This document shows positions 31,887 to 42,733 of a stretch of 64,000 bases of DNA, one piece after another (position 1 is the stretch's first letter; every line of letters starts with the position of its first letter). The position numbers were made by a program, and so were the translations under genes. The DNA comes from Bacteroidota bacterium. Its GTDB lineage: Bacteria > Bacteroidota > Bacteroidia > Bacteroidales > VadinHA17. The stretch is from NCBI GenBank assembly GCA_011050615.1, contig DRFJ01000050.1, positions 64,509 through 128,508 on the forward strand, read 5' to 3'. The notes below the pieces were generated by a model, which had not been told where the DNA came from, did no database searches, and worked only from the letters and a program-made list of their open reading frames with translations.

Positions 31887-32823
31887 TGCCCTGTACAATA
31901 TTTATTGACCTGGGAAGTATATTAAATTCAATGGGTGAATGACCGAGGGATTCCCCATCGGCTTCAACATGTATCAGTGGATCTGAATCAATCTTTATTC
32001 TCGACCCCGTATAACCCTCTACCTTTGGATGATCGAGTATTGTACCGTTATAGAGTCTTTTCAGGCTGCGTATGATTTCACCCTTGCGCATTCTCTTTAT
32101 CAGGGTAAGCTCAAACAGTCCGTCATCTGCAACAGCTCCGGGTGTTTGCATCATGCCTCCTCCGGAGTATTTGCCTATACCCAGGCTTATTGAAAAGGTG
32201 TCGTTCTGAATTTTTTTACCGTCTATCTCAATACTGGTACTGGTATGTTTGTATGAAAGCAGGCTCCTTAACAATACCCAGAAATAGAGTGTTTTGCTGC
32301 TGTGGCCCCTTTCTTTTTGCCGGTTCGACCTCTGTACTACCAGGGCATCAAATCCAAGGCCGGCAATGTTAACAAAATACCTTTCCCTGACATCCGTACC
32401 CGAGTAAAATTTTATTACCCCTGTATCCTGGAGAAATATATCTTCATTTTTTATTACCCTGATAGCCGCTTCATAATCCATGGGTATGTCAAACATCCTT
32501 CCCCAGTCATTTCCAGTACCTACCGTAACCATTCCCAGTATTATATCCGTTGTTGGCACCTCCTTCTGGCGGAAAGCACCGTTTACAACTTCATTCATGG
32601 TACCGTCGCCTCCGACAACAAGTATCTTCCTGCATCCTTTCCTGATAGCATCAGCGGCAAGATCCATTGCATGGTGCTTGGCCTCTGTGAAGATATAACT
32701 GAAGGGAATGTCATAACGATTTAAAAGATATGATATGATACTCCAATCCTTGTATCCTTTCTTCTTCCCTGCATTCGGATTGACTATTATATGCCATTCC
32801 CTTTTTATCTTTGCTCTGCCCAT
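31873..32823 (-). CDS. Diacylglycerol kinase-family lipid kinase
   Basis: IVNPNAG, VGGDGTMNEV, GTGND, GLGFDA, ADGE. Confidence 0.93.
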   Translation of the reverse strand: MGRAKIKREWHIIVNPNAGKKKGYKDWSIISYLLNRYDIPFSYIFTEAKHHAMDLAADAIRKGCRKILVVGGDGTMNEVVNGAFRQKEVPTTDIILGMVTVGTGNDWGRMFDIPMDYEAAIRVIKNEDIFLQDTGVIKFYSGTDVRERYFVNIAGLGFDALVVQRSNRQKERGHSSKTLYFWVLLRSLLSYKHTSTSIEIDGKKIQNDTFSISLGIGKYSGGGMMQTPGAVADDGLFELTLIKRMRKGEIIRSLKRLYNGTILDHPKVEGYTGSRIKIDSDPLIHVEADGESLGHSPIEFNILPRSINIVQGITGD

Positions 32824-33032
32824 AATAATTAGATTGGGGAGCTGTAAAGATGCTAAAAAAATATCTATTCGAAAATGTTAACCTGATTTAACCACAAAAA
32901 CATGTTAATAAAGTGTTGAAAACCGTAACCGAAATGTTTACAATTACATCGTTGATCAAGGATTTACGGGAATCAGAAATATTATTTTTGAGACTCCCAA
33001 AAAGACATAATTAAATTAAATAAAAAAAGCAG

Positions 33033-33824
33033 ATGGCGAGGATTATTTCATTGACAAACCAGAAGGGTGGAGTAGGTAAAACAACAACGGCTATAAATCT
33101 TGCTGCCAGCCTGGCAGCACTTGACAGGAAAGTACTGGTGGTAGATTTTGATCCTCAGGCTAATGCCACTTCAGGATTTGGAATTGATAACCGTAAGATT
33201 GAAACAACAATTTATGACTGTATCATCAATGATGCGCACCCGGAAAGTGCAATTACAGCTACCGAAATTGATAATCTTGAAATTATTCCTTCAAATATTG
33301 ACCTTGTTGGCGCAGAAATAGAGATGCTGAATACTGAAAAGAGAGAGAGTATTCTGAAGAATGTTTTGAAAGCCATACCTGACAGGTATGATTATATGCT
33401 CGTTGATTGTTCACCCTCACTGGGATTGCTTACGGTGAATGCACTGACGGCCTCCGATTCAGTTATCGTGCCTGTTCAGTGTGAATATTTTGCACTTGAA
33501 GGGCTTGGCAAATTGCTTAATACCATTAAAATAATACAGAAAAACCTTAACAGGGAACTTGTAATCGAAGGATTCCTGCTTACAATGTATGATTCAAGGC
33601 TGAGGCTCTCAAACCAGGTTGTCGAAGAGGTAAGAAAGCATTTCCAGCAAATGGTCTTTGACACAATAATACAACGTAATGTGAAACTCAGTGAGGCTCC
33701 CAGCTATGGACAGCCAGCTATTTTATATGATGCTGAATCAAGGGGTGCGGTCAATTACCTTAACCTTGCCCAGGAATTAATCGACAAGGGTGAAAACGGT
33801 ACAGGGAGAAATACTGATATCTAG
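33033..33824 (+). CDS. parA: Chromosome partitioning ATPase ParA/Soj
   Basis: NQKGGVGKTT, DPQAN, DCSPSLG, QCEYFALEG. Confidence 0.96.
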   Translation: MARIISLTNQKGGVGKTTTAINLAASLAALDRKVLVVDFDPQANATSGFGIDNRKIETTIYDCIINDAHPESAITATEIDNLEIIPSNIDLVGAEIEMLNTEKRESILKNVLKAIPDRYDYMLVDCSPSLGLLTVNALTASDSVIVPVQCEYFALEGLGKLLNTIKIIQKNLNRELVIEGFLLTMYDSRLRLSNQVVEEVRKHFQQMVFDTIIQRNVKLSEAPSYGQPAILYDAESRGAVNYLNLAQELIDKGENGTGRNTDI

Positions 33825-33850
33825 CAGATGATATTAATACAGATAGTGTT

Positions 33851-34732
33851 ATGGTAAAGAAACAAGCATTGGGAAGAGGACTTGGTGCATTAATAGACGA
33901 TGCTGAGAGGGAGAAACTGGAGGAGAAAGTTGAAGCGAACCTCGAAATCAATATTGATGATATTGGGCTCAACCCTTTTCAGCCACGAACAAGGTTTGAT
34001 GAACAGTTACTTGAAGAGCTGGCTTCTTCAATCCGTAAACTGGGAATTGTACAGCCTCTTACGGTCAGGGAAAAGGGAGATAACAAATACCAGCTTATTG
34101 CCGGTGAACGACGATTAAAAGCAGCACGCCTGGCAGGACTCAAAAGAGTGCCTGCCTATATTCGTACCGCTGATGACCAGGCAATGCTGGAACTGGCCCT
34201 GGTTGAAAATATTCAGAGAGAAGATCTCGATGCAATTGAAATAGCCATAAGTTATCAGAGACTTATAGAGGAATGTAAGCTTACACAGGAAAAACTGAGC
34301 GAAAGAGTGGGAAAACAAAGATCAACGGTTACCAACTACCTTCGATTGCTTAAACTGCCCGCAGAAATACAACTGGGGATAAAAAATAAACAGCTTACAA
34401 TGGGCCATGCACGCACCCTGGTTAATATTGAAGATGCCAAGCAGCAAATAAAAGTATACTACAGGATAATCGATGATGGCCTTTCGGTTCGTAAAACTGA
34501 AGAACTGGTTCGTAAGCTCCAGATGACAAAGTTGAAAGACCCTGAAAAAAACCAGAAGAAAAAACAACTTAACAATGATTTCCAGGACCTGTCCGGGCAC
34601 CTTTCCGAAATATTCAAGTCTGATGTCCAGTTCAGAATAAATGAAAAGGGGAAAGGTAAGATTGTTATACAATTTGATAATACCGAACAAATGGAGAGGA
34701 TTTTAGAGGTATTGGATAAACTTAACTCCTAA
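33851..34732 (+). CDS. parB: Chromosome partitioning protein ParB/Spo0J
   Basis: LGRGLGAL, NPFQPR, AGERR, ENIQREDL. Confidence 0.96.
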   Translation: MVKKQALGRGLGALIDDAEREKLEEKVEANLEINIDDIGLNPFQPRTRFDEQLLEELASSIRKLGIVQPLTVREKGDNKYQLIAGERRLKAARLAGLKRVPAYIRTADDQAMLELALVENIQREDLDAIEIAISYQRLIEECKLTQEKLSERVGKQRSTVTNYLRLLKLPAEIQLGIKNKQLTMGHARTLVNIEDAKQQIKVYYRIIDDGLSVRKTEELVRKLQMTKLKDPEKNQKKKQLNNDFQDLSGHLSEIFKSDVQFRINEKGKGKIVIQFDNTEQMERILEVLDKLNS

Positions 34733-34810
34733 AATATATATCTTTGCCTTATTGTCATAAGCGTGAGTTAATCCATGCCCCGGTTTAAATAAGAGTGACA
34801 ACAAAAGGTA

Positions 34811-35464
34811 TTGATATTGAAAATAGTTAAACTGAGCATATTACTCATTATACTGGCAATAAATGCCTGTGCCCAGGTCATTATAGAAGAAAGAGATACA
34901 ACATCCCTGGACCGGGAACAGACAGAGCAGCTTACTTTTTCCCGGAGAGAAATATCACCCGTGAAAGCCACTATGATGGCAGCTGCCTTACCCGGACTGG
35001 GTCAGGTGTATAACAGGAAATACTGGAAAATACCTCTCGTATATGCGGGTTTTGGTGCCCTGGGATACAGCATAATACGAAATTCACAAAATTTTGACGG
35101 TTATCTCGGTGCCTACCAGGACATAACGGATAACGTTCCTGAAACCAGGAGTTATGAGAAATATACTCCTTCGTTTGATTCCGGGGAAATAGATCCCGCA
35201 CTGGGGGCTGATAACTATAACCCTCAGACTCACAGCTGGGTAAAAGACCAGATGCTTAATGCTATATCGTATTACAGGAGATACCGTGATTTATCTTATA
35301 TTGGTGTCGGTTTCTGGTATATTTTATCAATACTGGATGCAAATGTTGATGCTCTTATGGCAGACTATGATATCAGCCCTGAATTGAGCCTCAGTGTTGA
35401 TCCTGTACCTATCGGTACAGTTTATGGCCCGACAATGGGCCTGGGGATAAAAGTAACATTTTAA
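34811..35464 (+). CDS. DUF5683 protein
   Basis: ALPGLGQVYNRKYWKIPLVY, YRRYRD, ILDANVDA; usual position after parB. Confidence 0.85.
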   Translation: MILKIVKLSILLIILAINACAQVIIEERDTTSLDREQTEQLTFSRREISPVKATMMAAALPGLGQVYNRKYWKIPLVYAGFGALGYSIIRNSQNFDGYLGAYQDITDNVPETRSYEKYTPSFDSGEIDPALGADNYNPQTHSWVKDQMLNAISYYRRYRDLSYIGVGFWYILSILDANVDALMADYDISPELSLSVDPVPIGTVYGPTMGLGIKVTF

Positions 35465-35474
35465 TGATAAAGCC

Positions 35475-36998
35475 ATGCGAAGAATAGTGATTTTAATAGC
35501 AGGAATAATATTTGTTAATGTCCCGGTCTCGGCAGTGAATGATACAATAATTACCGGATCAGACAGTGAATTTATTGAAAGAAAACTCGATAGCCTGACC
35601 CATATATGGTTTCTTGAAAGAATGGTCCCCGGAGAAGACAACTTTGCAGAAGACGCTCTGCCTGTAGTTGAATTTCCGGATTCTGTCTACAGGGAACGCC
35701 TGCATAATATTCATTCGGTGGTGAACCTTCCCTATAACAGTGTTGTGAAAAATCATATTCATGTTTACACGGGGAAGAAGAGAAGTAATTTTGAAATTAT
35801 GCTTGGGATGAGGGAATACTATTTTCCCATGATAGAGGATATTTTTGATTCTTATGGCCTGCCGGCCGAATTAAAGTATATGGCTGTCATAGAATCTGCT
35901 CTTAATCCCAATGCTGTCTCAAGGGTCGGTGCAACCGGCTTATGGCAATTCATGTACAGCACAGGCAGAGCCTACGGTCTGACAATTAATTCAGTGGTGG
36001 ATGAAAGAAGGGATCCCATAAAATCAACTCATGCAGCAGCCAGATATATCAAAGACCTATATAATATTTACAATGACTGGGGCCTGGTAATTGCTGCTTA
36101 CAACTGTGGCCCGGGAAATGTGAATAAGGCAATAAGAAGATCAGGTAACAAAAAAGATTACTGGGAGATTTATTACAGGCTTCCAAGAGAGACAAGAGGC
36201 TACCTGCCCGGTTATATTGCCGCTACCTATGCAATGCATTATTACAGGGAACATAATATTATACCCCGGAAGGTAAATTTTTCACTTGCAACAGATACAA
36301 TAATGGTTACCAGGGATATACACCTGGAACAAATGTCAGAAGTAATGAACATTCCCCTGGCAGAGTTAAAGGCGCTCAACCCACAGTACAGGACACTGAT
36401 AGTGCCAGGCAGAAGTAAGGCTATGGCAATAAACCTGCCTATAAAATACATGGGCGACTTTATCTCTCTCCAGGATTCTGTAGCAGCATACCGGGCCGAT
36501 CATTATTTTAAGCCGGAACTAAAAAATGCCAGCCCTACACAATCAACATATATACCACCCAGCATTAATGGTAAGACAAAACTGACATATACCGTTAAGG
36601 AAGGTGATAACCTTGGTTATATTGCAAGCTGGTATAATGTAGGAGTATCTGACCTGAGATACTGGAATAATATTTACCGTAATCTTATTCGTATTAACCA
36701 GAAACTTGCAGTATATGTGAACCCTTCTGAAAAAGAATATTATTCTGTCGTTGATGGTCTAAGCTTTGCCGAAAAGCAGGCAAGGATTGGAAAACCTGTC
36801 ATTGTTCAAAAAATTACTGATGAGGAAACTGCTGATAATGATTATGTTTATCATACGGTGAGATATGGGGACACGGTCTGGGATATAGCAAAAAAATATT
36901 CGGGAGTCAGTGCCACCGATATCCTCAACCTTAATGGACTGAGCCAGTCGGGGAAAATTCATGCAGGGCAAAAACTGAAAATTAAGAAGAAAAGCTAA
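35475..36998 (+). CDS. mltD: Lytic murein transglycosylase D-like (SLT plus two LysM)
   Basis: IESALNP, GATGLWQFM, AAYNCG, ETRGY; two LysM repeats (YTVKEGDNL, HTVRYGDTVWDIA). Confidence 0.92.
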   Translation: MRRIVILIAGIIFVNVPVSAVNDTIITGSDSEFIERKLDSLTHIWFLERMVPGEDNFAEDALPVVEFPDSVYRERLHNIHSVVNLPYNSVVKNHIHVYTGKKRSNFEIMLGMREYYFPMIEDIFDSYGLPAELKYMAVIESALNPNAVSRVGATGLWQFMYSTGRAYGLTINSVVDERRDPIKSTHAAARYIKDLYNIYNDWGLVIAAYNCGPGNVNKAIRRSGNKKDYWEIYYRLPRETRGYLPGYIAATYAMHYYREHNIIPRKVNFSLATDTIMVTRDIHLEQMSEVMNIPLAELKALNPQYRTLIVPGRSKAMAINLPIKYMGDFISLQDSVAAYRADHYFKPELKNASPTQSTYIPPSINGKTKLTYTVKEGDNLGYIASWYNVGVSDLRYWNNIYRNLIRINQKLAVYVNPSEKEYYSVVDGLSFAEKQARIGKPVIVQKITDEETADNDYVYHTVRYGDTVWDIAKKYSGVSATDILNLNGLSQSGKIHAGQKLKIKKKS

Positions 36999-37030
36999 CA
37001 GATCTTTTATGAGCTCATAATACCCAGGCT

Positions 37031-40030
37031 ATGCGTCCATACAAGACCTTTCTTATTTTCCTGGTCTTAATGCTTCTCCTTTACGGGCCGGCATTTTTTC
37101 TCAGGGGCCCGCTTAAAATAGCACCCGGCATGTCTGTCAGGTGGCCGGATATCAATTTGGCTTATATGAGCAGTGATAAGCCGGGGGAAGAAAGCCTGAA
37201 TACAATTTCACCTATCGATACATTAACCGGCAGCTCTGCTGCTGCAGATACTCTCACCCCGGGTTTAAAAACTGCTGAAAGCTATCTTTATGATTTCTCT
37301 GATTACCAGCAGCTAACGCATTCATTAAACAGTTTGGTAAGTAATGATACCGGGCAGCTGAGATTGATGTATTATGGTGATTCTCAGCTTGAAGGAGACA
37401 GGATTACCTGCCGCTTGCGTGAAGAATTAAGGAAGATAAATCCGGGGAGCGGACCGGGCTTGCTGAGTATAAGCCCGCTTGTGTCCTACACAAGAACATC
37501 CCATGTCAGGTCGTCAGGTAACTGGGATGACTATGATTATCTTGATTACCGGGACGGACTGATAAGCCATCAGAAACTGGGACCAATGATGAGTATCAGC
37601 AGGTTTACTAAACCGGGCAGGAGGGGAGAAACACCTGAAATAGCATGGTTCAGTGTTGAACCTTCGATATTCTCAGATAGCTTATCAGCTAAATATGATT
37701 TGTTCAGGCTGTTCTATGGCAACCTGAAAGATACCATGAAGATTGAAGTCTATACAGGTGAGTATTTAATCAGCAGGGATACCCTGATACCCTCGGACAG
37801 CGAAAGTGAATATTCAGTTCCCCTGGGATCATCTTCTTACATAAGGGTCGTTTTTGAAAGTAAGTCCAGTCCTGACTTTTACGGATTCAGTATTGAGGGT
37901 AAACAGGGTGCAGTGGTTGATAATATACCAAGAAGAGGAAGTGCTGGCTTTGAATATACAATGGTTTCAGAGGATAATCTTGCAAGCCTTTATGGAATGA
38001 TAAAACCGGATATCCTGGTAATGCATTACGGTCTTAATGTGGTTTTGAATGTGAGATCGAGCTATAAGTATTATGAAGAAGGCATATACCGGCAGTTGCT
38101 CAGGTTAAAGGAGTTGTGCCCGGGAACAGTTGTTATACTTGTCGGACTTACCGATATGGCCCATAAGGTTGACGGAGAGTTTCAATCATATGAAAATATT
38201 CCCCGGATAAGGGATGCACAAAAAAAAGCGGCTGAAAGGGCAGGGGTATTATTCTGGGATTCATGGCAGGCCATGGGTGGTGAAAACTCAATAATAAAAT
38301 GGAGCCGGAAAGTTCCGGCTCTGGCATCCGATGATTTCACTCATCTTACATATGCAGGTGGTGATGCCCTGGCCGATTTAATTCTCAGGGATATTATTAC
38401 GGTTGAAACACCGCAAAAAAAGGAAATTGCCCAAAGGGTAATGATTTCCCCGTCTCTATATGCTGATACCACAGCTGAAAAATCAGACGATGAAAAAAAT
38501 CTCCGGGCTGCTGCCGGACGGATGTTTCTTGACATGATTTCATACGACCAGGGCAAACCCCTGCTGTTCTCAAGAGCCTCATTCTGGATCTTCCTGTTCA
38601 TAGCCCTGATGTTTTACAGCCTCTTATTTACTAAACCCTTGCTCAGAAACACCTATCTCTTCCTGTTCAGCCTGTTTTTCTATTACAAGTCGGGAGGGGT
38701 TTTCTTCTTCCTGCTGATAATATCCACGCTGACAGATTATTTCGCGGGACTTATGATATACAGGGCAAGAAGAAAAACAGTGAAGAGACTTTTCGTTTTT
38801 TTAAGCTTGCTGGTTAACCTGGGCATGCTTTCATATTTTAAATATACCGGTTTCTTTACGGGTATCTTTAATAATATCTTTAATACTGACCTGCCTGTAA
38901 TTGACTGGTTTGCTGCTCTTTCCAATTTCTACCTTGGGACGGGTTTCAATATTGACGTAATTTTGCTTCCCGTTGGAATATCTTTCTTTACCTTCCAGAC
39001 CATAAGCTATACCCTGGATGTATACAGGGGAAAAACTGAGCCTGTGAGGAATATACTTGATTTCGGTTTTTATGTTTCTTTCTTCCCTCAGCTGGTTGCC
39101 GGACCCATAGTCAGGGCATCTGAATTTGTCCCGCAGCTTTATGCACCCTTCAACCTGTCAGAAAGGGAGTGGGGTCATGCCCTCTTCCTTATAGTGGGGG
39201 GTCTGATAAAAAAGGTGGTAGTATCTGATTTCATTTCTGTGAATTTTGTTGACAGGGTATTCGATACGCCTTTAATGTATTCAGGGCTGGAGAACCTTAT
39301 GGCTGTTTATGGTTACGGCCTGCAGATTTATTGTGACTTTTCCGGATATACTGACATTGCCATCGGTATAGCATTAATGCTCGGATACAGGTTACCGGTC
39401 AACTTTAATTCACCTTACAAGGCATATAATTTAACTGATTTCTGGCGAAGATGGCACATATCACTTTCGCGATGGCTCAGGGATTATTTATATATCTCCC
39501 TTGGCGGTAACAGGGAGGGCCGTTTCAGGACCCTGGTGAATTTGATGGTAACCATGTTGCTGGGAGGCTTATGGCACGGGGCTGCATGGAGGTTTGTCTT
39601 ATGGGGTGGCCTGCATGGACTGGGCATGGTGGTGAATAAGTTATGGATGAATATCTTCCCCCGCAGAAGAGGACCGGGCAGAATAAAAAGGTTTATATCT
39701 GTTTTTATCACTTTTAATTTTGTAAGCTTCTGCTGGATATTTTTCAGGGCTCCTGATATGAAGGGTGTTTTAATAATGCTCAGGCAAATATTCACAGCTT
39801 TCAGCCCGGGTAGCCTGATCAACGTTTTTACTGCCTACAGCCAGGTGATAATAATAATTGTCTGTGCTTATATTCTTCATTTTATGCCGGTAAAAGTGAA
39901 AGAATCATACAGGGGACTTTTTATCAGGCTTCCGCTTATTGCAAAGATTATTCTTGTATACCTCGTGGCCCTGGTTCTTTATAATGTGCAATCCGCAGAT
40001 ATACAGCCCTTTATCTACTTCAGGTTCTGA
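37031..40030 (+). CDS. SGNH/GDSL (PatB-like)-MBOAT O-acyltransferase (PatA/AlgI-like) fusion protein
   Basis: SGNH blocks GDS, RGSAG, YGLN, DDFTH; MBOAT motifs LPVGISFFTFQ, FFPQLVAGPI, DFSGYTD, FWRRWHISLS, GLWHG; C-terminal PFIYFRF. Confidence 0.88.
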   Translation: MRPYKTFLIFLVLMLLLYGPAFFLRGPLKIAPGMSVRWPDINLAYMSSDKPGEESLNTISPIDTLTGSSAAADTLTPGLKTAESYLYDFSDYQQLTHSLNSLVSNDTGQLRLMYYGDSQLEGDRITCRLREELRKINPGSGPGLLSISPLVSYTRTSHVRSSGNWDDYDYLDYRDGLISHQKLGPMMSISRFTKPGRRGETPEIAWFSVEPSIFSDSLSAKYDLFRLFYGNLKDTMKIEVYTGEYLISRDTLIPSDSESEYSVPLGSSSYIRVVFESKSSPDFYGFSIEGKQGAVVDNIPRRGSAGFEYTMVSEDNLASLYGMIKPDILVMHYGLNVVLNVRSSYKYYEEGIYRQLLRLKELCPGTVVILVGLTDMAHKVDGEFQSYENIPRIRDAQKKAAERAGVLFWDSWQAMGGENSIIKWSRKVPALASDDFTHLTYAGGDALADLILRDIITVETPQKKEIAQRVMISPSLYADTTAEKSDDEKNLRAAAGRMFLDMISYDQGKPLLFSRASFWIFLFIALMFYSLLFTKPLLRNTYLFLFSLFFYYKSGGVFFFLLIISTLTDYFAGLMIYRARRKTVKRLFVFLSLLVNLGMLSYFKYTGFFTGIFNNIFNTDLPVIDWFAALSNFYLGTGFNIDVILLPVGISFFTFQTISYTLDVYRGKTEPVRNILDFGFYVSFFPQLVAGPIVRASEFVPQLYAPFNLSEREWGHALFLIVGGLIKKVVVSDFISVNFVDRVFDTPLMYSGLENLMAVYGYGLQIYCDFSGYTDIAIGIALMLGYRLPVNFNSPYKAYNLTDFWRRWHISLSRWLRDYLYISLGGNREGRFRTLVNLMVTMLLGGLWHGAAWRFVLWGGLHGLGMVVNKLWMNIFPRRRGPGRIKRFISVFITFNFVSFCWIFFRAPDMKGVLIMLRQIFTAFSPGSLINVFTAYSQVIIIIVCAYILHFMPVKVKESYRGLFIRLPLIAKIILVYLVALVLYNVQSADIQPFIYFRF

Positions 40031-40036
40031 TTAATA

Positions 40037-41266
40037 CTATAAATATTCTTCCCAGCCGAGGTCAGGTCCGGTAAAGGGGGCAATGGCCCTCCTGTATATA
40101 CCCTGCACCCATGCTATGGTCATCCCGTAGTTGGTCACGGGTATGCCTGCTTCTATTGCCGGCCTGAGCCTGTTATGCAGTTGTTTACGCGTTATCATGC
40201 ATCCTCCGCATTGTATGACCAGTGAATAATCTGTCACCGGTCTTTTGGATGCGTCAAGTCCTGCCACAACATCAAAATGCAGTTTTTTTCCTGTGAAAGC
40301 ACTTAGCCACCTGGGTATTTTAATTCTGCCAATATCATCACATGACACATGATGAGTGCATGACTCAAGGAGCAATACACGGTCCCCGTCTTTGAGGTCT
40401 GAAATTTTTGGTGTGCCCCTCAGGTAACTGCCAAAATCACCTTTCAGCCTTGCAAGGACTATGCTGAAACTGGTAAGGGGTATATCCTGTGGTACTGAAG
40501 CATCAGCCTTAACAAATATTTGTGAGTCAGTTACCGCAAGTGCAGGTTTAACAGCAGATCTTTTCAGGAAGGTGTCTATTTCCCTCTCCTTTAAGACTAT
40601 TGCAATGGCATCATTATCGATAATATCCCTGATAGTCTGAACCTGGGGAAGGATAAGCCTGCCTTCCGGGGCTTCAGCGTCAATTGGAGTTATCAGGAGC
40701 ACCATATCACCTTGCTTAAGAAGATCACCCAGTAAAGTTGGTGCTTTAAGTGCATGTTCTGGTATAGTGTACTTTATCAGCTTAATAAGCTTTTCGTAAT
40801 TATCTTTTGTCACTGCAGAAAAACTTATCAGCTCTTTACCCGTTATATTTTTTACCTTTTCTATAAAGCCTGCCGAGGGTGCTTCAATATCTGATTTGGT
40901 TTGGACAATAATATAGGGGGTATCTGTATTCCTGAAGCTGTTTATAATCATTTCTTCATACTCATCCCACAAATTATTGTTAAGCAAAAGTATTCCGAGG
41001 TCGATTATTTCCAGTACTTTAAGTGATCTTTCCACACGTTTGGATCCCAGCTCTCCAATATCGTCTATACCTGCAGTATCAATAAGTATCACCGGGCCGA
41101 AACCGCTTATTTCAAATGATTTTTTTACCGGGTCGGTGGTGGTACCGGCCTGTTCAGAGACAATAGCTATTTCCTGCCCGGCCAGTGCATTTATAAGGCT
41201 GCTCTTGCCGTTATTCCTCCTTCCGAAAATACCAATATGGGGTGTGCTTTCCCTGCCTTTATTCAT
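40037..41266 (-). CDS. hydF: [FeFe]-hydrogenase H-cluster maturation GTPase
   Basis: GRRNNGKSS, GTTTDPV, DTAG, APEGRLILPQVQ, ESCTHH...QCGGCM, TNYG. Confidence 0.95.
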   Translation of the reverse strand: MNKGRESTPHIGIFGRRNNGKSSLINALAGQEIAIVSEQAGTTTDPVKKSFEISGFGPVILIDTAGIDDIGELGSKRVERSLKVLEIIDLGILLLNNNLWDEYEEMIINSFRNTDTPYIIVQTKSDIEAPSAGFIEKVKNITGKELISFSAVTKDNYEKLIKLIKYTIPEHALKAPTLLGDLLKQGDMVLLITPIDAEAPEGRLILPQVQTIRDIIDNDAIAIVLKEREIDTFLKRSAVKPALAVTDSQIFVKADASVPQDIPLTSFSIVLARLKGDFGSYLRGTPKISDLKDGDRVLLLESCTHHVSCDDIGRIKIPRWLSAFTGKKLHFDVVAGLDASKRPVTDYSLVIQCGGCMITRKQLHNRLRPAIEAGIPVTNYGMTIAWVQGIYRRAIAPFTGPDLGWEEYL

Positions 41267-41281
41267 AGTAGACGCAAATTA

Positions 41282-42733
41282 TTAGTAATTATGGCTGCTT
41301 ATATCGTCAAGGGAAAATCCCATTTTGAGCAGGTTGGCAGGTTTAAGTATATCATCCAGTTTTTTACTTTCGAAGTATCCTGTCTGTTCACACGCCTTAA
41401 AAATATCAGTATTTTTTTCTTTCATGTACAGTGCAATCTCAGTAGCCTTATTATAACCTATATAAGGAATTAAGGCGGTACTTATGACCGGGCTCTTAAC
41501 CAGGATCTCGTAGGCTGCCTTCCTGTTAACCTTAAGATCATAAATAAGGTTCATCGACAGGCTCTTATTTGCATTTATTAGCATTTTGAGGCTTTCAATA
41601 ATACTATGACCTATGACTGGCAGGTATGCGTTAAGATCGAGGCAGCCCTGCCCGCACAGGTTAGCCAGAAGCATATCATTGGAATAGATCTTATGAGCAG
41701 TACTTATTACAAATTCGGGTATCACCGGGTTAATCTTCCCTGGCATTACAGAGCTGCCCTTCTGTCGCTCCGGTATACTTATAAGGCCTGACCTGCTTAT
41801 GTCAGATGCCATAAGCCTTATATCCGATGCTATTTTTTCAAGGTTTACGGCATGGGATTTAAGAGTGGCGTGTATTTCAACCCACCTGTCAAGGTTTGAT
41901 GTTGCATCATTTAGATTTTCGCTTCGGGTAAGTGGTAGTGAAGTAAGATGTCTAAGTTCCGGTACTACTTCTATTATAAAGAACCGTGGTGTTGCAAGTC
42001 CGGTTCCTGTTGCTCCCCCACCGAGATTTACAACCTTAATTCTTTCCTTGCATTTTGAAACCCTCCACCAGTCGCGTGATAAGGCATCATTATATGCGCT
42101 GAACAGCCTGCCGAAAGATGAAGGAACGGCTTCCTGCATCTGTGTATAGGCGGGACGCAGGTGTTCCCGGTATCTTGTTTCCAGTGTTTCTATATTTTTC
42201 CTGAGTGAATTTATTGCTTCCTCGAGTTCTTCAAGAAGCTTCATAGAAGCAATGGTAAGGGCCGTGGGAATGACGTCATTTGTAGACTGGTAAACATTGG
42301 CATGCTCGATAGGATCTATAAACTTATAATCACCTGCATTGTTCCCGCTGTTTATAAGTGCTGCATTTGTGATTATCTCATTTATATTCATATTTATGCT
42401 TGTGCCGGCACCACCCTGGATGGCTGGTACGATAAAATGACTGAAATACAGTCCGTCAGATACTTCGACCGCAGCATTTTCGAGTGCATCGATAATTTCC
42501 GGTGGAATAATTTTAAGTGGAGAATCCCCGTCATATTTCTTTTGTACGGCTTCGGAAAAATGCCTGTACACGCGATAGCAGGCCTGTTTTACCAATCCGG
42601 TTGCCCTGTACCATTCCTTCTGGAAAGGTATATCTCCCGGGAAATTTTCCACTGCCCTTATTGAGTTAATGCCGTAAAGGGCTGCTTCAGGTATTCTTAC
42701 TTCCCCAAGCTTGTCAGATTCAATACGATCCAT
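41282..42733 (-). CDS. aspA: Aspartate ammonia-lyase
   Basis: QGGAGTSINMN, QSTND, TQMQEA, GSSVMPGKINP fumarase/aspartase signature. Confidence 0.88.
   Translation of the reverse strand: MDRIESDKLGEVRIPEAALYGINSIRAVENFPGDIPFQKEWYRATGLVKQACYRVYRHFSEAVQKKYDGDSPLKIIPPEIIDALENAAVEVSDGLYFSHFIVPAIQGGAGTSINMNINEIITNAALINSGNNAGDYKFIDPIEHANVYQSTNDVIPTALTIASMKLLEELEEAINSLRKNIETLETRYREHLRPAYTQMQEAVPSSFGRLFSAYNDALSRDWWRVSKCKERIKVVNLGGGATGTGLATPRFFIIEVVPELRHLTSLPLTRSENLNDATSNLDRWVEIHATLKSHAVNLEKIASDIRLMASDISRSGLISIPERQKGSSVMPGKINPVIPEFVISTAHKIYSNDMLLANLCGQGCLDLNAYLPVIGHSIIESLKMLINANKSLSMNLIYDLKVNRKAAYEILVKSPVISTALIPYIGYNKATEIALYMKEKNTDIFKACEQTGYFESKKLDDILKPANLLKMGFSLDDISSHNY

Follow-up and report, generated by a model that had tools for sequence, protein, structure and literature searches.

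The fused gene and its product

Here we analyse a single gene, at 37031..40030 on the plus strand, in a stretch of 64,000 nucleotides from a Bacteroidota bacterium (assembly GCA_011050615.1, contig DRFJ01000050.1, positions 64,509 to 128,508 of the forward strand; GTDB family VadinHA17), a stretch which is referred to at its full length as the window. The gene has an ATG start and 999 codons with zero internal stops, and its product combines, in one polypeptide, an N-terminal membrane anchor, an SGNH module, a polar linker and a membrane-bound O-acyltransferase (MBOAT) domain. An initial annotation, made from the letters of the DNA, had described just such an uninterrupted 999-residue frame with these four parts, and the open reading frame, Pfam and hydropathy confirm it. 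The positions then assigned to the GDS, RGSAG, YGLN and DDFTH motifs, to the histidine of WHG and to the C-terminal QPFIYFRF are all exact; the linker, put at about 45 residues, is shorter, at about 35. The features are given below with the evidence for each, including, where it applies, the per-residue confidence of a structural model (predicted local distance difference test, pLDDT).

37031..40030, plus strand: whole fused gene (anchor, predicted Ape1-type SGNH module, linker, predicted PatA-type MBOAT), 999 residues and a stop codon
37037..37102, plus strand: N-terminal membrane anchor, residues 3-24 (hydropathy peak at 6-24, model helix at 3-23)
37283..38404, plus strand: predicted Ape1-type SGNH module, residues 85-458, an SGNH core with an inserted beta-sandwich (pLDDT about 83-94, alignments with Ape1)
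37376..37384, plus strand: SGNH block I, GDS, residues 116-118, with the putative nucleophile Ser118 (aligns to GDS of Ape1)
37448..37930, plus strand: beta-sandwich inserted after block I and ahead of block II, approximately residues 140-300, equivalent to the carbohydrate-binding module of Ape1 (model strands within 143-300, inside the Ape1 alignment)
37937..37939, plus strand: block II glycine, Gly303, in RRGSAG (RGSAG is residues 302-306; matched in the alignment by the glycine of 'ING' in Ape1)
38030..38038, plus strand: block III, G-L-N, with Asn336 (YGLN is residues 333-336; G334 and N336 invariant)
38333..38344, plus strand: block V, D-F-T-H, with the putative triad residues Asp435 and His438, both invariant (DDFTH is residues 434-438, 38330-38344)
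38405..38509, plus strand: polar linker, residues 459-493, about 35 residues (pLDDT below 50, no majority consensus residue)
38510..40027, plus strand: predicted PatA-type MBOAT domain, residues 494-999 (Pfam MBOAT, DltB profile and structure matches)
39575..39577, plus strand: putative MBOAT catalytic histidine, His849 (WHG is residues 848-850; aligns to WHG of DltB)
40010..40027, plus strand: putative C-terminal acyl-shuttle hexapeptide FIYFRF, residues 994-999, with Tyr996, in a chain that ends QPFIYFRF (position of the motif)

The block II glycine is an oxyanion-hole residue in canonical SGNH hydrolases. The C-terminal tyrosine motif was reportedly introduced by Schultz, Snow and Walker in 2023. 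The structural model was built with AlphaFold2 on an alignment of 44 homologues (mean pLDDT 75.5; predicted template modelling score, pTM, 0.61); residues 85-455 are well predicted, and the MBOAT half has a pLDDT of about 55-90.

Pfam places MBOAT at residues 674-884 (E 4.6e-31; 108.8 bits, the cut-off being 27). By profile, this half of the protein matches DltB (6bug) at E 1.4e-34; in structure it aligns with DltB (8jem) at Z 19.4 (root-mean-square deviation, rmsd, 4.1 over 370 residues), and with human MBOAT7, PORCN and HHAT at Z 17.4 and below. By profile and by model, the fused protein is thus predicted to be a member of the MBOAT superfamily of the bacterial PatA/AlgI type (PF03062). DltB itself was tried as an identity and rejected, the protein scoring 158.6 bits with the NCBIfam equivalog TIGR04091, whose cut-off is 375.

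The fusion is genuine and common

Four runs, each from a different study and one of them possibly the window's own source, have contigs that span 36900-40100 with zero indels and no stop; these vary by three substitutions, two of them synonymous and the third T457A. It had been set beforehand that the linker be examined for a stop or a frameshift, and independent contigs contain neither. A word-indexed protein search, in which 8000 candidates were scored, returned 6859 homologues at E 0.001 or better, and the best 120 of these are all 909-1043 residues long and cover 89-100% of the query. Moreover, a scan of species-representative genomes gave 80 related loci, all titled uncultured Bacteroidales or Bacteroidota, of which 66 encode both halves in one stop-free frame of at least 900 residues. 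The remaining 14 comprise four cut by a contig end, two with frameshifts (L019 and L044) and eight that are genuinely split. In the two frameshifted loci (L019:5983-9028 and L044:4964-8973; in L044 the transglycosylase gene is frameshifted too) the fused genes may be pseudogenes or products of assembly error.

Within the window's GTDB family, 135 of the 151 sampled genomes have a match. At least 93 of the 151 have both halves in one stop-free frame, by a hand count among the matches listed, and at least 98 do if five frames of 986-1074 residues, listed by their MBOAT half only, are included; in 26 genomes among the matches listed, the MBOAT has a frame of its own, about 500-650 residues long. 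The possibility, raised at the outset, that homologues are always split does not hold. The intact contigs, the full-length homologues and the family counts together show that the fusion is real and that it is the majority state in the family; the single 999-residue frame is not an assembly error.

Searches of wider catalogues point the same way. Among representatives of clusters at 50% identity there were 37198 matches at E 0.001 or better, and 31 of the best 150 are at least 900 residues long; a Pfam scan of 30 long representatives found GDSL followed by MBOAT in every one. In the ESM Atlas, a cluster named 'GDSL-like Lipase/Acylhydrolase family/MBOAT' scores 0.92 and has 54 members, the commonest phylum being Bacteroidota (phylum known for 8), and some databases already name both domains ('DltB (MBOAT superfamily)/lysophospholipase L1-like esterase'). 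The SGNH-MBOAT architecture is common and recurrent.

Variants of the architecture were also seen. One genome of the GTDB family (G563) has two full-length fused copies (C24:13787-16771 and C12:882-3881), with frames of 1006 and 1001 residues and 57% and 53% identity to the window's protein. Three representatives of 1232-1319 residues (P0164, P0170 and P0187) carry an extra 550-650 residues ahead of GDSL and MBOAT, a region that has no Pfam match at E 0.001. As leads only, there are Planctomycetota clusters in the ESM Atlas, of about 830-860 residues, that score 0.76-0.77 to a fused representative; one, likewise a lead only, has been named automatically 'Peptidoglycan O-acetyltransferase family protein'.

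Residues of the putative relay

A complete SGNH triad, the MBOAT histidine His849 and the tyrosine of a terminal FxYxxF motif, Tyr996, occur in one polypeptide, as the initial annotation had it, and they are invariant across the fused homologues. Specifically, S118, N336, D435, H438, H849, F994, Y996 and F999 do not vary in any of 44 close or 32 divergent fused homologues, and the same holds for G116, D117 and G334; in the close set the whole of P993-F999 is without variation. Also in the 44 close homologues, M1 and P3 are invariant and positions 2 and 5 have a basic consensus, so that a conserved M-[RK]-P-x-[RK] precedes the anchor.

The terminus FIYF[RQK]F is found in 79 of the 80 related loci, the remaining one being truncated by a contig end. 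FIYFRF ends 71 of the 80 and FIYFQF seven, and all seven of the latter are among the eight split loci; the eighth split locus (L083) has lost its C-terminus at a contig end. Since fused proteins of other clades also end in FIYFQF, the difference between R and Q follows lineage and not fusion. In one genome of the same class (L094, G211:C1, 7011-8684) the MBOAT terminates in PIYLQF instead of FIYFxF.

The SGNH module is predicted to be of the Ape1 type

Structural alignment of the SGNH module with VIA-align gives Z 36.2 against Ape1 of Neisseria meningitidis (4k3u; rmsd 2.8, 338 of 350 residues, covering the core and the beta-sandwich) and Z 32.4 against Ape1 of Campylobacter jejuni (8gkd), and Foldseek matches Ape1 at E 5e-16 with a target-normalised template modelling score of 0.77-0.78. 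A profile of the family matches Ape1 (4k3u) at E 1.1e-19 with blocks I, II, III and V aligned; the single sequence matches Ape1 at E 4.1e-9, over residues 307-451 only. The putative triad Ser118-Asp435-His438 and the oxyanion hole of Gly303 and Asn336 correspond to the block set of the Ape1 family. At E 0.01 or better, PatB is absent from the solved structures matched by sequence, and a Pfam scan of the protein gives no match to DUF459 (PF04311); in a search of the genome, DUF459 scored 16.8 bits inside the fused gene itself, against a cut-off of 27.2. One trait of PatB is present, namely a single hydrophobic segment near the N-terminus, residues 6-24, ahead of the SGNH domain. Sequence profiles and the model thus agree in assigning the module to the Ape1 family, as a divergent member, and not to the PatB family. 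An Ape1-type partner for an MBOAT is unexpected, and is the point of greater interest.

Split relatives and the origin of the fusion

In a sample drawn evenly from the phylum, 118 of 301 genomes have a match, and a full-length frame is found only in the window's genome. In eleven loci from other genomes of this sample, an MBOAT gene of about 500 codons is immediately preceded by an SGNH gene of about 465-490, and in four of the eleven (L005-L008) the two lie in one frame with one stop between them. In an even sample of the order, 219 of 251 genomes match, a stop-free full-length alignment being confined to G000 and a second genome of the same family; frames of 907-1201 residues, known from the MBOAT end only, occur in seven others. 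Outside the GTDB family, then, the two parts are mostly separate adjacent genes.

Two kinds of SGNH protein occur in these clusters: type A, the membrane-anchored kind that is fused here (with GDSQxEGDR, RGSxG and DFTH), and type B, a second SGNH protein. Three-gene relatives encode type A, type B and the MBOAT in that order, as does one genome of the same class, and in some two-gene relatives the MBOAT stands beside a type-B-like SGNH gene alone. Type B paralogues are nearer to Ape1 than is type A (E 2.2e-19 and 1e-18, against 4.1e-9).

Alignment with the split relatives shows that the linker is the counterpart of the tail of the SGNH gene and the intergenic stretch. After the linker, the fused protein keeps the N-terminal helix of stand-alone MBOATs, and for this reason the fusion looks like the loss of a stop together with a short spacer. 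From these sequence comparisons, the fused gene looks like the outcome of an in-frame joining of adjacent type A SGNH and patA-like MBOAT genes of the O-acetylpeptidoglycan (OAP) cluster of Bacteroidia. For that cluster, Weadge, Pfeffer and Clarke (2005; PMC1199599, cited, as are PMC12148441, PMC9558356 and PMC11382707 below, from part of its text) give the order ape1b-(ape1c)-pat in Bacteroides and Porphyromonas. The designation 'undescribed system' in the initial annotation was therefore overstated: the same parts are adjacent in most of the Bacteroidota searched, in the order already given by those authors, and the fused architecture is itself abundant in databases, some of which name both domains.

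A tree of the MBOAT domain was built from 83 sequences (29 fused, 52 split and 2 other), leaving out 67 of the 150 matched proteins, whose BLAST alignments did not span most of the domain. It requires at least five changes between the fused and split states (FastTree; IQ-TREE quick), 'split' being judged here by catalogue protein length, so that the class may include fragments. A single clade of all fused forms is rejected by an approximately unbiased test (p-AU 2.4e-6, IQ-TREE) that was run after the first tree had been seen. A second, deep fused clade contains 18 representatives.

Some split loci have further arrangements. In L078 and L082 a mobile element separates the gene pair, an IS200-like Y1 transposase lying between the type A SGNH and MBOAT genes (L078:7493-7945 and L082:7385-7837; Pfam Y1_Tnp at E 1.8e-17 in L082). 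L002 (G101:C5, 1102-5570) has one SGNH gene followed by two tandem MBOAT genes, of 503 and 507 residues, both ending in FIYFQF. In L094 (G211:C1) the type B SGNH gene does not separate type A from the MBOAT but lies convergent a short way downstream.

Neighbouring genes and the rest of the genome

Upstream of the fused gene lie four genes on the same strand, separated by gaps of 10-78 bases.

33033-33824, plus strand: ParA-like gene (label read from the translation, not from a family search)
33851-34732, plus strand: ParB-like gene (label likewise read from the translation)
34811-35464, plus strand: DUF5683 gene (Pfam)
35475..36998, plus strand: lytic transglycosylase with SLT and two LysM (Pfam SLT E 2.7e-31, LysM E 1.2e-24)

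The transglycosylase gene stops 32 bases ahead of the fused gene. Of the 73 related loci whose sequence extends far enough, 72 have a transglycosylase gene directly upstream, and the same goes for 64 of 64 fused loci. The order ParA, ParB, DUF5683 also recurs in related loci, ParB and DUF5683 being present in 65 of the 80. A scan of 32700-41400, with a sigma-70 consensus that may not suit this phylum, found no plus-strand terminator-like site in the gaps from the ParA-like gene to the fused gene. Downstream and convergent, at 40037-42733 on the minus strand, are a gene for a HydF-type GTPase (Pfam) and an aspartase/fumarase-like gene (label from the translation), a pair that is conserved beside the fused gene in most related loci.

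In the rest of the window's genome, which is 85% complete, we found no second MBOAT, no other Ape-like SGNH protein, no DUF459/PatB above the cut-off and no AT3 above the cut-off, for which there was a sub-threshold fragment elsewhere only. Across 81 genomes of the family, everything that a type B query matched at E 1e-12 or better was a fused gene or an SGNH gene beside an MBOAT.

Proposed function and its alternatives

The gene probably encodes a single-chain membrane-bound O-acetyltransferase, formed by fusion of two genes and acting on an extracytoplasmic glycan, most likely at the C6 hydroxyl of N-acetylmuramic acid; we hold this reading with moderate confidence. It builds by analogy on the PatA/PatB system, in which PatA of C. 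jejuni, the one such protein shown to do so, auto-acetylates the tyrosine of a C-terminal FXYXXF motif and PatB takes acetyl from an acetyl-tyrosine peptide to glycan (Anderson et al. 2025, PMC12148441). The fused protein fits this scheme in one chain, which suggests a relay through His849, Tyr996 and Ser118. The N-terminal helix would anchor the chain with its N-terminus inside, the SGNH module would be periplasmic, and the chain would enter the MBOAT domain from the outside. The MBOAT, through His849, would load acetyl from cytoplasmic acetyl-CoA onto Tyr996 at the outer face, and the tethered SGNH module would then accept it on Ser118, with His438 and Asp435 completing the triad and Gly303 and Asn336 the oxyanion hole. 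From there the acetyl group might be handed to a glycan held by the inserted beta-sandwich. The conserved M-[RK]-P-x-[RK] argues for an SGNH module on the outside, as does the periplasmic position predicted for the N-terminus of PatA; for PatB, a single N-terminal helix is the predicted anchor (PMC12148441).

Three observations make peptidoglycan the likeliest acceptor: the homology to Ape1, the conserved transglycosylase neighbour and the heavily O-acetylated peptidoglycan of Bacteroides, for which levels of 27-69% (PMC1199599) and 56-66% (PMC11382707) have been given. O-acetylation would block the lytic transglycosylase encoded upstream, and lysozyme as well. As the searches turned up no separate esterase, de-acetylation may also fall to this one SGNH site.

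Several points weigh against this assignment. In the model, the fold and canonical active site of the SGNH module look like those of the esterase of the Neisseria/Campylobacter system and not of the transferase; PatB of C. jejuni (8tlb) aligns at only Z 15.5, over 188 residues of the SGNH core, on a par with unrelated GDSL esterases. PatB and OatA have Ser or Asn in place of the block II glycine, and this exchange, along with a hydrophobic wall, is taken as the mark of a transferase (PMC12148441); here 31 of the 32 divergent fused representatives retain Gly303, and one has N. The Pfam Lipase_GDSL_2 match to residues 322-443 is marginal (33.0 bits against 32.9). The full-length model has moderate inter-domain confidence (pTM as given above), and its last ten residues, Tyr996 included, have a pLDDT below 50. 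The transglycosylase is not beside the cluster in two class-level loci, and its adjacency thus supports a role in peptidoglycan only within the lineage. Finally, at 85% completeness the genome may be missing a partner. A predicted complex of the MBOAT half (494-999) with the SGNH module (85-458) gave a score of 0.00 and a mark of 0.32, and bears neither way.

Much of the same evidence could be read as meaning that the SGNH module is a tethered O-acetylpeptidoglycan esterase, an orthologue of Ape1, so that the chain would be a writer joined to an eraser, or one in which the esterase merely rides along, acetyl passing from Tyr996 to the glycan through another partner or directly. The closest match in structure and sequence is indeed Ape1, a characterised de-O-acetylase; the canonical block II glycine that is kept here is a hydrolase trait, and the carbohydrate-binding-type insert is shared with Ape1 and absent from PatB (PMC12148441). 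Moreover, the two-gene relatives that pair the MBOAT with a type-B-like SGNH protein alone weaken the equation of type A with the transferase. We nonetheless consider this reading unlikely. Neither the genome, for SGNH, PatB or AT3, nor the type B query in the 81 family genomes yielded another candidate for the transfer step, and the recurrence of fusion to an MBOAT, with its five or more state changes and the rejection of a single fused clade, argues for a partner in direct hand-off. Type B, being nearer to Ape1, is the better candidate for the esterase, which would leave type A, with its PatB-like anchor, for transfer.

It is also rather improbable, and a little more so, that the relay operates as proposed on another envelope polymer (capsule, exopolysaccharide, lipopolysaccharide or the glycan of a glycoprotein), in the manner of AlgI/AlgJ/AlgX or WssH, the peptidoglycan-like features being inherited baggage. 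MBOAT-SGNH pairs do acylate several polymers (PMC12148441, PMC9558356), homologues are annotated as 'AlgI' or 'DltB' in databases, and many Bacteroidota genomes have two to four MBOAT matches, so that there are paralogues acting on different targets. The fused gene, however, has no genes for glycosyltransferases or polysaccharide export on either side, its neighbours being ParA, ParB, DUF5683 and the transglycosylase; both of the nearest solved relatives of the SGNH module act on peptidoglycan, the MBOAT is the only one found in the window's genome, and its DltB equivalog score falls far below the threshold (158.6 against 375 bits). An artefactual fusion, in which an error of sequencing or assembly had erased a stop or frameshift between two genes, is scarcely credible and is rejected: relatives with a single in-frame stop between the genes exist, and two related loci are frameshifted, but the contigs of the 4 runs are free of indels and stops, 66 of the 80 loci, from separate assemblies, are fused, and the best 120 homologues are all of full length.

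A bolder proposition is possible, which we put forward tentatively and at well short of an even chance: that the acceptor-side enzyme of peptidoglycan O-acetylation in Bacteroidia is of the Ape1 type, not PatB-like, with an active site like that of a hydrolase and a glycan-binding insert of its own, and that here, joined to the MBOAT, one serine site would both write and erase O-acetyl groups beside the membrane, in a protein encoded together with a lytic transglycosylase in the parAB cluster. If so, loss of the block II glycine would be no general rule to separate transferases from esterases, and the fusion would be a natural single-chain model of the hand-off from MBOAT to SGNH. In any event, the fusion suggests that in Bacteroidia the MBOAT is partnered by a module of the Ape1 type whose active site is that of a canonical hydrolase, which puts that block II rule to the test.

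Peptidoglycan O-acetylation bears on lysozyme resistance and on the control of autolysins. A natural covalent pair could make the acyl hand-off from MBOAT to SGNH easier to capture, structurally and biochemically, than it is with PatA and PatB; transfer from PatA to PatB was not cleanly reconstituted by the authors of PMC12148441. The fusion joins neighbours already known as separate genes and does not amount to a new system. As the lineage is environmental and the parts are otherwise known, we regard it as a useful variant, widespread in one lineage, that introduces no new principle.

Comparison with known systems

The systems described so far are of two kinds, those in which an MBOAT works with an SGNH protein encoded apart and those in which AT3 and SGNH are fused (Anderson et al. 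2025, PMC12148441; the SGNH review; the AT3 review, PMC9558356; all for the parts of these texts that were available). A literature search found no description of a natural SGNH-MBOAT fusion, although Schultz, Snow and Walker (2023) may mention fused forms; such a fusion goes unmentioned in the accessible portions of the TmAT paper, of Anantharaman and Aravind (2010) and of a 2024 gut review, and Sychantha et al. (2018; PMC6174289) make no mention of Bacteroides, fusion, Ape1b or Ape1c.

The DltB/DltX/DltD system shares the MBOAT fold and sequence (the profile match at E 1.4e-34) and the FxYxxF motif. There, unlike here, the motif belongs to a microprotein of its own, a carrier protein acts as donor and the SGNH protein, DltD, is a separate chain. 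OatA and OafA also combine a transmembrane acyltransferase and an SGNH domain in one chain, and for OatA acetyl-tyrosine and then acetyl-serine intermediates have been reported (PMC12148441). They differ from the fused protein in that their acyltransferase is AT3 (PF01757, of which a scan of the protein found none) and not MBOAT, and in domain order, the SGNH domain coming first here and the AT3 domain first in OatA.

With PatA/PatB, and with Ape1, of Neisseria and Campylobacter the fused protein has in common the MBOAT histidine and C-terminal FxYxxF, an anchored SGNH partner, the adjacency of the genes and a link to the control of lytic transglycosylases (PMC12148441). The two halves are here in one chain, with SGNH ahead of MBOAT, and the SGNH module, unlike PatB, is not DUF459 and retains the glycine of block II; apart from it, no esterase gene was found. 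The relay residues named in the initial annotation hold up; that the SGNH module is of the Ape1 type and not of the PatB type escaped it. With Ape1 itself (4k3u and 8gkd) the module shares the two-part fold, at the Z scores of 36.2 and 32.4, and the alignment of blocks I, II, III and V. Unlike Ape1, it is a divergent type A form, membrane-anchored and fused to an MBOAT, from which it probably receives acetyl rather than only removing it.

The nearest precedent in the same phylum is the OAP cluster of Bacteroides and Porphyromonas, with its identical order of an insert-bearing SGNH gene followed by an MBOAT gene. Ape1c of Weadge et al. lacks the insert (PMC1199599) and type B has it, the types being compared here by description and not by accession. 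The window's locus differs from that cluster in having the leading SGNH gene and the MBOAT joined in a single frame and in having lost the middle SGNH gene.

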